DNA of 64,000 bases, from assembly GCF_013315695.1 (NCBI RefSeq), contig NZ_CP054353.1; one strand, given 5' to 3'. Within the stretch, counting starts at the first letter, position 1. The number at the start of each line of letters is the position of its first letter. The notes under the pieces were generated by a model, which worked only from the letters and a program-made list of their open reading frames with translations, searched no databases and had not been told where the DNA came from. The DNA comes from Escherichia coli (lineage in GTDB: Bacteria; Pseudomonadota; Gammaproteobacteria; Enterobacterales; Enterobacteriaceae). The position numbers were made by a program, and so were the translations under genes. Of the stretch, positions 784 to 61,995 are shown one piece after another.

Positions 784-1652
784 TGTCCATTTTAATTGAT
801 AAAAACACCAAGGTTATCTGCCAGGGCTTTACCGGTAGCCAGGGGACTTTCCACTCAGAACAGGCTATTGCATACGGCACTAAAATGGTTGGCGGCGTAA
901 CCCCAGGTAAAGGCGGCACCACCCACCTCGGCCTGCCGGTGTTCAACACCGTGCGTGAAGCTGTTGCTGCTACTGGCGCTACCGCTTCTGTTATCTACGT
1001 ACCAGCACCGTTCTGCAAAGACTCCATTCTGGAAGCTATTGATGCAGGCATCAAACTGATTATCACCATCACTGAAGGCATCCCGACGCTGGATATGCTG
1101 ACCGTGAAGGTGAAACTGGATGAAGCGGGCGTTCGCATGATCGGCCCGAACTGCCCGGGCGTTATCACTCCGGGTGAATGCAAAATCGGTATCCAGCCTG
1201 GTCACATTCACAAACCGGGTAAAGTGGGTATCGTTTCCCGTTCCGGTACACTGACCTATGAAGCGGTTAAACAGACCACGGATTACGGTTTCGGTCAGTC
1301 GACCTGTGTTGGTATCGGCGGCGACCCGATCCCTGGCTCTAACTTTATCGACATCCTCGAAATGTTCGAAAAAGATCCGCAGACCGAAGCGATCGTGATG
1401 ATCGGTGAGATCGGCGGTAGCGCTGAAGAAGAAGCGGCTGCGTACATCAAAGAGCACGTTACCAAGCCTGTTGTGGGTTACATCGCTGGTGTGACTGCGC
1501 CGAAAGGCAAACGTATGGGCCACGCGGGTGCCATCATTGCCGGTGGGAAAGGGACTGCGGATGAGAAATTTGCTGCTCTGGAAGCCGCAGGCGTGAAAAC
1601 CGTTCGCAGCCTGGCTGATATCGGTGAAGCACTGAAAACTGTTCTGAAATAA
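783..1652 (+). CDS. sucD: succinyl-CoA synthetase alpha subunit
   Basis: 289 aa; CoA-binding N-terminus [28 protein letters not shown] and phospho-His loop region; translationally coupled to sucC. Confidence 0.97.
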
Positions 1653-1752
1653 ATATCTGTAATAAGAAATAGCCCTCGCCGCTTCCCTCTACAGGAATGG
1701 CGAAGGGCTGTCGGTTTCGACATGGTTGGCCATCATATGATGGCCTTTTTTA
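1653..1752 (+). ncRNA. sdhX: 3'UTR-derived sRNA of the sdh-suc transcript (SdhX/RybD-like), ending at the sucD terminator
   Basis: Position immediately downstream of the sucD stop, two consecutive hairpins, the second followed by a T-run; assignment rests on recalled K-12 biology, exact 5' end not determinable from sequence. Confidence 0.5.
1728..1751 (+). terminator. rho-independent terminator of the sdh-suc operon
   Basis: Perfect palindrome ggccatcatatgatggcc followed by tttttt. Confidence 0.75.
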
Positions 1753-1857
1753 TTCGGGCACTAATCTGAAAAGTTTGCCCACTGCTTTTTTTCCCCATCC
1801 TCTGCGCAATAATGCCCGGCGAAATATCTCCTCTCCGTTCTGTAAAAGGATTTATAC

Positions 1858-3051
1858 ATGAAGAAAATTGTTCTGCCGGTTGCTCTGGCCCTGATGGGTA
1901 TAAATGCGGACGTTTATGCGGCCGATGTAAAGATCGATATTTTAAGTGCAACAGTGAAAGATAAACGCATTGAGGGGGCATCGGTGACGCTGCAACGCAA
2001 TGGCGCACAATCTGTTTCTGGCACCACAAATGCCTCGGGCAGCATTAATCTGGGCTCTTCCTTTGCCGATGATCAAGATGCTTTGTTAATCGTCAAAAAA
2101 GAGGGCTATTCTAATCTGGTGGTCAAATGCCCGTGTGCGGGCATGACTTATGCGATTAGTCCGGTAATGACTAGTCTGGATGGCATGCGTGTCGTATTGA
2201 GCTGGGGCGAAAAGCCTTTTGATCTTGATTCGCATTTGATCTTCCCTGGCGGACATATTTATTTTGATAGTAAAGAGGGGACTGATGCCAATCTGGATGT
2301 TGATGATACGGATAGCTATGGACCAGAAACTGTCACTATCAGCAAAAAGCATTTTGGCGAAAGTTACATCTATGCCGTGCAGGACTATAGCAATAAAGGG
2401 TTGCCCAACAGTAATTATCTCTCTGCCAGTAAGGCAAAAGTGTTTGTTTATGTAGGGGGCTCCCTGGTGCGTAGTTATAGTGTCCCTGCTGGAAAACGAG
2501 GGAACATCTGGACCGTGTTTAAACTCAATCCAAACGGCGAGTTTGAAGATATCAACTCTGTTACCACCGCCAATTTTAACGACACCACATTAGGCGTCAG
2601 GGATTTAGCCACTGTGATAATGCCTGCGACGGGTTCTTCAACTCCGGCTTCACCTGCGATGCAAAACAGTGGATATACTCAACTGGCAAGAAAATATAAT
2701 CGTGAAGGCGAAGCTGTTTACAAAACCGGTCAACTTGAGCAAGCCATTCAACTCTTCCAACAGGCAACAGAATTAGACGGCAATTACGGTCAGGCATTTA
2801 GTAACCTGGGTCTGGCTTATCAGAAAAATGGCAACATCGCGGAAGCGATTTGGGCAAATCGTAAAGCGATCTCGTTAGCCAGTGGAGCAAATGCGGCGAC
2901 AACGCGCGCTAACTCCTATTATAACATTGCCAAAATTTATGAAACTGCAGGACAGAACGCTGATGCATTGCAGCATTATCAACTCGCTTATGCGGAAAAA
3001 AATAAGCCCTCTTATGAAGAGGCCATCGCACGGGTAAAAGCGAAAATGTAG
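1858..3051 (+). CDS. exported protein of unknown function with C-terminal TPR repeats (middle region resembles a YfaP/DUF2135-like domain)
   Basis: 397 aa; N-terminal signal peptide MKKIVLPVALALMGINADVYAA; AAGGA RBS upstream; C-terminal TPR-like repeats; absent from the K-12 sucD-cydA interval as I recall it. Confidence 0.7.
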   Translation: MKKIVLPVALALMGINADVYAADVKIDILSATVKDKRIEGASVTLQRNGAQSVSGTTNASGSINLGSSFADDQDALLIVKKEGYSNLVVKCPCAGMTYAISPVMTSLDGMRVVLSWGEKPFDLDSHLIFPGGHIYFDSKEGTDANLDVDDTDSYGPETVTISKKHFGESYIYAVQDYSNKGLPNSNYLSASKAKVFVYVGGSLVRSYSVPAGKRGNIWTVFKLNPNGEFEDINSVTTANFNDTTLGVRDLATVIMPATGSSTPASPAMQNSGYTQLARKYNREGEAVYKTGQLEQAIQLFQQATELDGNYGQAFSNLGLAYQKNGNIAEAIWANRKAISLASGANAATTRANSYYNIAKIYETAGQNADALQHYQLAYAEKNKPSYEEAIARVKAKM

Positions 3052-58725: not shown

Positions 58726-59395
58726 ACGTTATTTTGTCACCGGAACGGATACCGAAGTGGGGAAAACCGTCGCCAGTTGTGCACTTTTACAAGCCGCAAA
58801 GGCAGCAGGCTACCGGACGGCAGGTTACAAACCGGTGGCCTCTGGCAGCGAAAAGACCCCGAAAGGCTTACGTAATAGTGACGCGCTGGCGTTACAGCGC
58901 AACAGTAGCCTGCAGCTGGATTACGCAACGGTAAATCCTTACACCTTCGCAGAACCCACCTCGCCGCACATCATCAGCGCACAAGAGGGCAGGCCGATAG
59001 AATCATTGGTAATGAGCGCCGGATTACGCGCGCTTGAACAACAGGCTGACTGGGTGTTAGTGGAAGGTGCTGGCGGCTGGTTTACGCCGCTTTCTGACAC
59101 TTTCACTTTTGCGGATTGGGTAACACAGGAACAACTGCCGGTGATACTGGTAGTTGGTGTGAAACTCGGCTGTATTAATCACGCGATGTTGACTGCACAG
59201 GCTGTGCAGCAAGCCGGACTCACTCTGGTGGGTTGGGTAGCGAACGATGTCACTCCACCGGGCAAGCGTCACGCTGAATATATGACCACGCTCACCCGCA
59301 TGATTCCCGCGCCGTTGCTGGGCGAAATTCCCTGGCTTGCAGAAAATCCAGAAAATGCGGCAACCGGAAAGTACATAAACCTTGCCTTGTTGTAG
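58718..59395 (+). CDS. bioD: dethiobiotin synthetase
   Basis: 225 aa, GTG start, P-loop GTDTEVGKT. Confidence 0.95.
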
Positions 59396-59554
59396 CCATC
59401 CTGTATTTGGTTAAATTGCGAGCGAGATCGCGTCTTCGGTTGACTGCAATTTAACCAATTAAATTCTAAAATAATCACGAAAAAAATTTTACTTCCGCAT
59501 CATGCGGTGGATGTGGGAATTGCCCAGGCGGCGGGGGATAGGGGCTGCAGACAG

Positions 59555-59577
59555 TTATCCACTATTCCTGTGGATAA
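59555..59577. promoter_or_regulatory. pair of inverted DnaA boxes upstream of uvrB
   Basis: ttatccact ... tgtggataa. Confidence 0.6.
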
Positions 59578-59881
59578 CCATGTGTATTAGAGTTAGAAAA
59601 CACGAGGCAAGCGAGAGAATACGCGGCTTGCACGCGAATTGGCGTTAAAGACGGCTCAAAGAAATATCTTTTATTTTTTAACTGGTTAGATAATTGCAAT
59701 GGCAGTCACTGAAGAGGCATCTCTTGCCATAAAACTGTCATCACTCATCTTGACAAATGTTAAAAAAGCCGTTGCTTTGGGGATAACCCGGTAAGGCCGG
59801 AGTTTTATCTCGCCACAGAGTAAATTTTGCTCATGATTGACAGCTGAGTTTACGCTGTAACAGAAATATTATGGTGAGAAA

Positions 59882-59897
59882 CTGTTTTTTTATCCAG
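59882..59897. promoter_or_regulatory. LexA (SOS) box in the uvrB promoter
   Basis: ctgtttttttatccag (CTGT-N8-CCAG) immediately followed by -10 tataat. Confidence 0.8.
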
Positions 59898-59973
59898 TAT
59901 AATTTGTTGGCATAATTAAGTACGACGAGTAAAATTACATACCTGCCCGCCCAACTCCTTCAGGTAGCGACTC

Positions 59974-61995
59974 ATGAGTAAACCGTTCAAACTGAATTCC
60001 GCTTTTAAACCTTCTGGCGATCAGCCAGAGGCGATTCGACGTCTCGAAGAGGGGCTGGAAGATGGCCTGGCGCACCAGACGTTACTTGGCGTGACTGGCT
60101 CCGGGAAAACCTTCACCATTGCCAATGTCATTGCTGACCTTCAGCGCCCTACCATGGTACTTGCGCCCAACAAAACGCTGGCGGCCCAGTTGTATGGCGA
60201 AATGAAAGAATTCTTCCCGGAAAACGCGGTGGAATATTTCGTCTCCTACTACGACTACTATCAGCCGGAAGCCTATGTACCGAGTTCCGACACCTTCATT
60301 GAGAAAGATGCCTCGGTAAACGAACATATCGAGCAGATGCGTTTGTCCGCCACCAAAGCGATGCTGGAGCGGCGTGATGTGGTTGTGGTGGCATCGGTTT
60401 CCGCGATTTATGGTCTGGGCGATCCTGATTTATATCTCAAGATGATGCTCCATCTCACGGTCGGTATGATTATCGATCAGCGCGCGATTCTGCGCCGACT
60501 GGCGGAGCTGCAATACGCTCGTAATGATCAGGCATTCCAGCGCGGTACTTTCCGCGTTCGTGGTGAGGTGATAGATATCTTCCCGGCAGAATCGGATGAC
60601 ATTGCACTTCGCGTGGAACTGTTTGACGAGGAAGTGGAACGATTGTCGTTATTTGACCCGCTGACCGGGCAGATTGTTTCCACTATTCCACGTTTTACCA
60701 TCTACCCGAAAACGCACTACGTCACGCCGCGCGAGCGCATCGTACAGGCGATGGAAGAGATCAACGAAGAACTGGCCGCCAGACGCAAAGTGCTGTTGGA
60801 GAACAACAAGTTGCTTGAAGAGCAGCGGCTGACCCAGCGTACCCAGTTTGATCTGGAGATGATGAACGAGCTGGGCTACTGTTCCGGGATTGAGAACTAC
60901 TCGCGCTTCCTCTCCGGTCGTGGACCGGGTGAGCCACCGCCGACGCTGTTTGATTACCTGCCTGCCGATGGGCTGCTGGTCGTCGACGAATCTCACGTCA
61001 CCATTCCACAAATTGGTGGCATGTATCGCGGTGACCGGGCGCGTAAAGAGACACTGGTGGAGTATGGCTTCCGCCTGCCATCAGCGCTGGATAACCGTCC
61101 GCTTAAGTTTGAAGAGTTCGAAGCATTAGCGCCGCAAACCATCTATGTTTCGGCGACGCCGGGTAATTACGAGCTGGAAAAATCCGGCGGCGATGTGGTG
61201 GATCAGGTGGTGCGTCCAACAGGCTTACTTGACCCGATTATTGAAGTGCGTCCGGTAGCGACACAGGTGGATGATCTTCTATCGGAGATTCGTCAGCGAG
61301 CGGCAATTAACGAACGCGTACTGGTTACAACTCTGACCAAGCGGATGGCGGAAGATCTCACTGAATATCTCGAAGAACACGGTGAGCGCGTGCGTTATCT
61401 TCACTCAGATATCGACACCGTCGAACGTATGGAGATTATCCGCGACTTGCGTCTGGGTGAGTTCGACGTATTGGTAGGGATCAACTTACTGCGCGAAGGT
61501 CTGGATATGCCGGAAGTGTCGCTGGTGGCGATCCTCGACGCTGACAAAGAAGGCTTCCTGCGTTCCGAACGTTCGTTGATCCAGACCATTGGTCGTGCGG
61601 CACGTAACGTTAACGGTAAAGCGATTCTCTACGGCGATAAGATCACCCCATCAATGGCGAAAGCGATTGGCGAAACCGAACGTCGCCGCGAGAAACAGCA
61701 GAAGTACAACGAGGAACACGGCATTACGCCGCAAGGCTTGAACAAGAAAGTGGTCGATATCCTGGCGCTGGGGCAGAACATTGCCAAAACCAAAGCGAAG
61801 GGCAGAGGAAAATCGCGCCCGATTGTTGAGCCGGATAATGTGCCGATGGATATGTCGCCTAAAGCGTTGCAGCAGAAAATCCATGAGCTGGAAGGGTTGA
61901 TGATGCAACACGCGCAGAATCTGGAGTTCGAAGAAGCGGCGCAAATTCGTGACCAGTTGCATCAGTTGCGTGATTTGTTTATTGCCGCGTCGTGA
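59974..61995 (+). CDS. uvrB: excinuclease ABC subunit B
   Basis: 673 aa, Walker A GVTGSGKT, helicase motifs. Confidence 0.98.

Follow-up and report, generated by a model that had tools for sequence, protein, structure and literature searches.

The bioD-uvrB spacer of E. coli

The window analyzed here, the whole 64,000-nt stretch of E. coli DNA, contains bioC, bioD, a 578-bp spacer (59396–59973), and uvrB, in the order annotated in K-12. In the RefSeq records examined, those of strain 2014C-3075 and K-12 among them, no feature is annotated within the spacer. Its sequence is 100% identical to that of strain 2014C-3075 and 97.9% identical to that of K-12 MG1655 (12 differences in 578 bp), and a match to it was obtained in 5424 of 5426 complete E. 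coli genomes. The features located in the spacer and at its borders are listed in Table 1.

Some irregular cases were seen when the spacer was compared with the genome collection. The region is absent from two E. coli genomes, and 2 of the ~5427 spacer matches fall on records typed as plasmids. In strain ZH063 (NZ_CP014522.1), the spacer is found in two separate places, which suggests an insertion near window position 59741.

Two short open reading frames (ORFs) were considered as genes and rejected. For the first, a 48–amino acid ORF on the + strand (59502–59648), neither start codon nor frame is present in Citrobacter, and conservation over this ORF is due to constraint at the DNA level. The second, a 69–amino acid ORF on the − strand (59269–59478), overlaps the 3′ end of bioD in antisense orientation; short ORFs are not conserved here. 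A scan of positions 59200–60100 with Rfam covariance models returned 0 matches at E ≤ 1. An earlier note on this DNA had described the region as structured, a description that fits the hairpin located just past bioD; for the rest, there was neither an Rfam match nor other evidence of RNA structure.

Table 1. Features of the bioD-uvrB spacer and its borders, in window coordinates.
Feature	Position	Strand	Basis or remark
bioD stop codon (TAG)	59393..59395	+	ORF table; RefSeq annotation of strain 2014C-3075 (100% identical) and K-12
Escherichia-specific hairpin, 13-bp perfect stem, 26-nt loop	59407..59458	+	Arms 59407–59419 / 59446–59458
A7T4 tract (aaaaaaatttt) in A/T-rich stretch	59477..59487	.	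Aligned across Enterobacterales, alignment columns 217–250
Conserved GGGCT, 9–13 nt upstream of box I	59542..59546	.	Anchored alignment of 28 sequences
DARS1 DnaA box I, TTATCCACT, 8/9 (1 mismatch)	59555..59563	+	Equals DnaA-box7 of Wurihan 2018
DARS1 DnaA box II, TTATCCACA, perfect consensus	59569..59577	-	Equals DnaA-box6
DARS1 DnaA box III, TAATACACA	59581..59589	-	Equals DnaA-box5; same orientation as box II
DARS1 regulatory flank (about 42–50 bp per literature)	59590..59648	.	Columns invariant across 12 Enterobacterales
Probable degenerate box III′, GTTAGAAAA	59592–59600		Within DARS1 regulatory flank
Inverted repeat GCAAGC / GCTTGC	59607–59612 / 59626–59631		In DARS1 flank
Invariant GCGGC	59623–59627		In DARS1 flank
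Extra conserved DnaA-like box TTATCCCCA, 8/9	59778..59786	-	Between P3 and P2
uvrB promoter P2 (GTGAGA-18-TATAAT)	59874..59903	+	Promoter scan; LexA box between hexamers
LexA (SOS) box CTGTTTTTTTATCCAG	59882..59897	.	Identical to AACTGTTTTTTTATCCAGTA in PMC6015884; CTG/CAG conserved in Enterobacterales alignment
uvrB promoter P1 (TTGGCA-17-TAAAAT)	59907..59935	+	Promoter scan
uvrB coding sequence	59974..61995	+	ORF table and annotation; ATG at 59974

Three DnaA boxes and their flank correspond to DARS1

In E. coli, datA, DARS1, and DARS2 are the three noncoding chromosomal sites that set the ATP-DnaA/ADP-DnaA cycle and hence the timing of initiation. DARS1 of E. coli K-12 was reportedly described by Fujimitsu, Senriuchi, and Katayama in 2009, in the bioD-uvrB intergenic region at 17.5 min. 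In the window, the same intergenic region contains three DnaA boxes followed by a flank past box III. As in a DARS core, box I is opposed to boxes II and III, and the spacing is fixed: 5 bp (ATTCC) between boxes I and II and 3 bp (CCA) between boxes II and III. Box III, which begins 3 bp past box II, reads TGTGTATTA in the window. Box II matches the full consensus and is the sole perfect DnaA box in the 64-kb window, while boxes I and III deviate from the relaxed consensus TT(A/T)TNCACA at one position each; a consensus box II with one mismatch each in boxes I and III is likewise stated for K-12 DARS1. Boxes I and II make up a perfect 9-bp inverted repeat, GTTATCCAC / GTGGATAAC, and among 300 simulated 64-kb windows, an inverted box pair of equal quality turned up in just one.

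The earlier note had correctly recognized the two inverted boxes and their position relative to the neighboring features. They lie upstream of the LexA-controlled uvrB promoters and about 100 bp beyond an inverted repeat that follows bioD (box I starts 99 bp past its right arm). What was taken for a two-box pair is, in fact, a three-box unit (I–5 bp–II–3 bp–III) with a conserved flank. The range considered in the note ended at position 59577, and box III and the flank were therefore cut off.

The comparison with the K-12 uvrB promoter region, which had been proposed in the note, revealed that positions 59549–59693, containing all the boxes and the flank, are identical in K-12 and represent the known DARS1. 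Strain substitutions are located only outside the element and affect neither the boxes nor the flank. Since this segment is identical, published work on K-12 DARS1 holds for the window without extrapolation. Locus, box order, orientation, spacing, and synteny are all the same as for K-12 DARS1, with no difference of substance.

According to Wurihan et al. 2018 (PMC6015884), DARS1 is composed of DnaA-boxes 5, 6, and 7 of the uvrBp3 promoter. That paper gives one consensus box only in the uvrB upstream region, and this box corresponds to the middle box here (box 6 equals box II). The DARS1 core was defined as boxes I to III by Sugiyama et al. 2019 (PMC6868365), and a review (PMC5742627) describes DARS1 as 101 bp consisting of the core and a ~50-bp regulatory region. 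In the published architecture, box I is inverted relative to boxes II and III, and the gap between boxes I and II is 5 bp. The double DnaA box of DARS1 given by Stringer et al. 2024, cTAATACACAtggTTATCCACAg (boxes III and II), is the exact reverse complement of positions 59568–59590. The exact limits of the 101-bp DARS1 and the start site of P3 are cited here second-hand, from the citing literature.

Overall, boxes I to III together with the ~50-bp flank are, with very high confidence, DARS1, the boxes of which are placed by the literature in the uvrB promoter P3, and the inverted repeat past bioD is a separate Escherichia element. The finding is real but already known and thoroughly characterized, and it leaves the current understanding unchanged.

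The three-box unit is linked to uvrB in four bacterial orders

Conservation of the unit was assessed in a species sample of 80 loci collected by a UvrB scan, with one genome per species. The I-5-II-3-III unit was detected in 27 of the 80 species loci, as a single match per locus and always upstream of uvrB. In all 27, the opposed pair with a 5-bp spacer is followed, 3 bp on, by a box III of the TGTG/TGTT type. The unit was present in all 11 Enterobacterales (E. albertii, Citrobacter, three “Enterobacter,” Superficieibacter, Acerihabitans, Yersinia, two Photorhabdus, and Providencia) and also in Aeromonas, three Vibrio, Shewanella, Parashewanella, Colwellia, Cognaticolwellia, Pseudoalteromonas, Rheinheimera, and one gammaproteobacterial metagenome-assembled genome. 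The other 51 loci (379 kb), among them those of Idiomarinaceae, Haemophilus, Halomonas, Marinobacter, Lysobacter, methanotrophs, and Betaproteobacteria, double as a negative control; no three-box unit was found in them even at 3 mismatches. The earlier note had made its reading dependent on conservation in relatives, and the boxes proved to be invariant across Enterobacterales and well beyond.

When sequences were anchored at the core, the TGTG-ATTA of box III was also conserved. In an alignment of 12 Enterobacterales species, the spacer was mostly unalignable save three islands: one extending from just before box I to about 59640, the TGGGGATAA box, and the LexA box. Among the E. coli genomes, the 101 bp at 59548–59648 are at least 99% identical in 5404 of 5424; the corresponding number for the bioD-proximal 80 bp that contain the hairpin (59396–59475) is 45 of 5424.

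The distance between the core and the uvrB ATG is 344 to 495 bp across Enterobacterales, Vibrio, and Aeromonas. Several other genera have a neighbor other than bioD on the upstream side, and even so the DARS1 core keeps its distance to uvrB. In Colwellia, Pseudoalteromonas, and Rheinheimera, the core is located about 1.7 to 1.8 kb upstream of uvrB, ahead of another ORF (the loci with a distant core are L024 and also L020 to L022, L025, L026, L028, and L036). In the Colwellia piezophila locus (L024, positions 1191–3001), the core precedes by 422 bp an ORF for a 462–amino acid multi-pass membrane protein, the end of which overlaps the uvrB start.

For V. cholerae, a DARS-like sequence in the corresponding position is attributed to Fujimitsu 2009 in PMC6090056. 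Our comparative data add that the signature is linked to uvrB across Enterobacterales, Vibrionales, Aeromonadales, and Alteromonadales; this widens an existing observation and is no new finding. For genome scans, it is relevant that DARS sites are unannotated in RefSeq, yet can be recognized from the box I–5 bp–box II–3 bp–box III signature alone.

Conserved positions in the DARS1 flank

The regulatory flank of DARS1 sits past the last box (Frimodt-Moller et al. 2015), and full activity in vitro requires it. In 28 core-anchored sequences, we observed near-invariant GG at −13/−12 from box I, an A at −2, and a G located 36 nt past box III, the latter within GCGGCTT in Enterobacterales and within GGCTT in Colwellia, Parashewanella, and Rheinheimera. 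This near-invariance of the flank positions (window 59542–59546 and 59623–59629; loci L003 to L036) spans several gammaproteobacterial orders, with Escherichia at one end and Colwellia and Rheinheimera at the other; Vibrio is an exception.

A test for conserved hairpins on either side of the core in distant taxa gave a combined p of 0.02 on the upstream side (uncorrected for phylogeny) and 0.31 on the downstream side. Since this signal is weak upstream and not significant downstream, the flank positions are better described as primary-sequence conservation. The conserved GG and G could conceivably contact an unrecognized cofactor or set the shape of the DNA, and, separately, the hairpin past bioD could shield DARS1 from biotin-regulated read-through; both ideas are speculative, and we regard them as quite unlikely.

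DnaA reactivation and repression of the uvrB promoter P3

The mechanism established in K-12 papers allows the order of events at the window's boxes to be predicted. ADP-DnaA would first bind consensus box II. Further protomers would then be recruited, to box I in head-to-head orientation over the 5-bp spacer and to box III in head-to-tail orientation over the 3-bp spacer. The protomers on boxes I and II would make a head-to-head AAA+ contact, for which Gln208 is needed in both and which would cause both to release ADP; the resulting apo-DnaA would leave the DNA, bind ATP, and gain the competence to initiate at oriC.

For the identical K-12 sequence, ADP dissociation and regeneration of ATP-DnaA have been demonstrated both in vitro and in vivo, and naked 70-bp DARS1 DNA was sufficient for ADP release in vitro. 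No accessory protein is needed in vitro, with DiaA providing a moderate stimulation. In cells, DARS1 deletion lowers the number of origins per mass, i.e., the origin concentration, and strongly impairs mouse gut colonization, the mutant being out-competed. The second site, DARS2, is located in the ygpD-mutH intergenic region and has core boxes I to III with identical spacing and with box I inverted, as in DARS1. DARS1 is about 101 bp long, its boxes I and II are of high affinity, and it requires neither supercoiling nor a protein activator (IHF and Fis included); DARS2, in contrast, is 455 bp long, has low-affinity core boxes, and depends on IHF, Fis, and negative supercoiling. Judged by the identity to K-12, DARS1 in the window should be defined by its nucleotide exchange on ADP-DnaA, which serves replication control, and not by uvrB regulation.

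The same boxes are also connected with uvrB transcription. Of the proximal promoters, P2 has the makeup of a LexA/SOS promoter, with a CTG-N10-CAG box inside it; a LexA box between the −35 and −10 elements of uvrBp2 is described in PMC6015884. In the window, the LexA box is about 305 bp downstream of boxes I/II. The distal promoter P3 was reportedly mapped by van den Berg in 1985, Arikan in 1986, and Fujimitsu in 2009. Our consensus promoter scan over positions 59550–59600 found 0 sigma-70–like sites, and P3 is placed there by the literature only.

A DNase I footprint of DnaA at DARS1 has been published (PMC6015884). In the same study, a TG-to-CA change in box 6 (box II) lifted P3 activity 5.9-fold, revealing repression of P3 by DnaA, and uvrB transcription was increased about 3-fold in dnaA(A345S) cells. 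DnaA represses P3 because the same boxes sit in this promoter. At DnaA-repressed promoters (dnaA, mioC, and nrdAB), as at uvrB P3 (van den Berg 1985; Wurihan 2018), DnaA boxes overlap the promoter and repress it. Ordinary DnaA operators lack an opposed box I at 5 bp, and it is the extra box I that constitutes the DARS signature. A DnaA-bound ChIP-seq region has been reported upstream of uvrB, and a 3-bp-spaced double DnaA box such as boxes II and III predicts in vivo DnaA occupancy.

It can be argued that the boxes are chiefly a transcriptional operator that represses uvrB P3 and couples excision repair to the replication cycle, DnaA reactivation being incidental. The footprint, the effects of the box-6 and dnaA(A345S) mutations, and the roughly constant distance from the core to the uvrB ATG in Enterobacterales, Vibrio, and Aeromonas agree with such a role. 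We nevertheless consider it unlikely to be the main one. The three-box geometry with the same spacings recurs at DARS2 upstream of mutH, and a function of the unit itself is therefore indicated. In addition, the core is far from uvrB and upstream of another ORF in Colwellia, Pseudoalteromonas, and Rheinheimera; the amount of uvrB RNA was unchanged between tagged and untagged dnaA strains; and ADP release was obtained with naked 70-bp DNA. By occupying boxes in P3, a weak distal promoter, DnaA contributes to uvrB expression in a modest and secondary way, beside LexA control of P2. The DnaA input into uvrB expression invoked in the earlier note is thus backed by the reported footprint and P3 derepression, but it is not the primary function of DARS1, which the note had missed. 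As neither the identity of the element nor its primary function was recognized there, the earlier interpretation is only partly supported.

A reading of the inverted boxes as an RNA hairpin or intrinsic terminator (GUUAUCCAC-loop-GUGGAUAAC with a U-containing tail) for bio read-through transcripts can be set aside as highly improbable: although the scan scored positions 59554–59578 as terminator-like (9 pairs, 4 of them G-C, tail CATGTGTATT), two opposed DnaA boxes automatically form a palindrome that accounts for this score, the tail is a poor U-tract, the exact DnaA-box sequence is conserved with zero compensatory variation, and the spacer varies freely in Vibrio, Shewanella, and others while the boxes stay fixed.

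Further conserved sequences are present between P3 and P2. The plus-strand reading of the extra 8/9 DnaA-like box (Table 1), TGGGGATAA, is near-invariant in Enterobacterales. If the numbering is that of NC_000913.3, a published ChIP-seq center labeled “DARS1” at 813,331 corresponds to window position 59,779, which falls on this 8/9 box, with the DARS1 core about 200 bp upstream. We take the oriC coordinates of the ChIP-seq paper to fit version 3 of NC_000913. The paper itself states NC_000913.2 numbering. A block at 59750–59766, TTGACAAATGTTAAAAA, is conserved in Enterobacteriaceae and contains a perfect −35 hexamer; no −10 match was found 16 to 18 bp from this hexamer.

An Escherichia-specific hairpin past bioD

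The inverted repeat pointed out in the earlier note (ggttaaattgc / gcaatttaacc) is present at 59409–59419 / 59446–59456 and forms the inner part of a 13-bp perfect stem. It can also be counted as a 16-nt repeat with 94% identity (59404–59419 / 59446–59461). The hairpin starts 12 nt past the bioD stop codon, about 100 bp upstream of box I; in the 64-kb window, 11 short-looped inverted repeats reach 13 nt or more, the hairpin among them. In 500 first-order Markov simulations of the 578-bp spacer, none reached 13 bp, the longest repeat being 11 bp, which places the hairpin beyond chance. Its predicted RNA fold has an energy of −20.9 kcal/mol, with z = −3.9 for the + strand and z = −4.65 for the − strand. 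An origin from a mobile or repeated element (MITE) was rejected, the hairpin being found in one place per genome.

Grouping the repeat with the DnaA boxes, as had been done in the note, turned out to be unjustified. The hairpin is restricted to Escherichia: an equivalent stem was absent from the other members of the Enterobacterales alignment, including Citrobacter, where bioD is adjacent. Since the regulatory flank is on the other side of the core, the hairpin is outside minimal DARS1, and we treat it as a separate feature.

In seven Escherichia sequences, all 13 pairs are kept, with 100% of the alignment cells paired. Three pairs vary, each on one side only and each to G.U on the + strand, and 0 double compensatory changes were found among these seven closely related sequences. 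The E. albertii loop has diverged at 6 of 26 positions; when the E. albertii hairpin was used as a query, no further diversity was recovered from the E. coli collection. The substitutions are more readily explained by RNA pairing in the bio transcript than by a cruciform or a − strand RNA, as far as a pattern of only three substitutions can suggest.

On these grounds, the hairpin may be a 3′ stem-loop that stabilizes the bioBFCD mRNA or helps define its end; this is our leading interpretation, held tentatively and at somewhat less than even confidence. Such a stem-loop would act as a barrier to 3′ exonucleases or as a weak aid to termination. Rho-terminated transcripts can end at the 3′ side in stem-loops (Dar and Sorek 2018, PMC6061677) with a stable stem and no U-tract, and the hairpin past the bioD stop codon is a candidate for the same kind, although its stem is unusually A/T-rich and its loop unusually long compared with them. 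The two Term-seq supplements searched contained no entry for the bioD 3′ end, and a literature search for a bioBFCD terminator returned nothing useful.

The repeat may instead be a DNA-level feature, such as a cruciform or the site of a dimeric protein, or else a palindrome of this lineage that is neutral and serves no function. That it folds equally well on both strands, lacks double compensatory changes, and is confined to one genus is compatible with this explanation. However, in a cruciform or on the − strand, the three stem substitutions that are G.U on the + strand would give C.A mismatches; within Escherichia, the loop and the 5′ flank have diverged far more than the stems; and the 39-bp center-to-center spacing is unusual for a dimeric site, which leaves the DNA-level or neutral explanation with a low probability, below that of the mRNA 3′ stem-loop.

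Even less probable is that the repeat serves as the Rho-independent terminator of the bioBFCD operon. Its location 12 nt past the stop codon, its stable stem, and substitutions compatible with the + strand only would suit a terminator. Yet G-C pairs make up only 4 of the 13, the loop measures 26 nt, and the stem is followed by AAUUAAAUUCUAAAA instead of a U-tract; the sequence (tail AATTAAATTC) was not called by the terminator scan, and the hairpin is absent in Citrobacter with its adjacent bioD.

The hairpin arms were also compared by eye with the half-site of the BirA operator, bioO; a resemblance was rejected, the relative orientation of the half-sites being wrong and only ~5 of 9 bases matching. 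Last, the hairpin loop contains a GATC (Dam) site at 59426–59429. This site is lost in E. albertii, and, with the stem not conserved there, a GATC is aligned at the hairpin-loop position in Citrobacter and three “Enterobacter” genomes.
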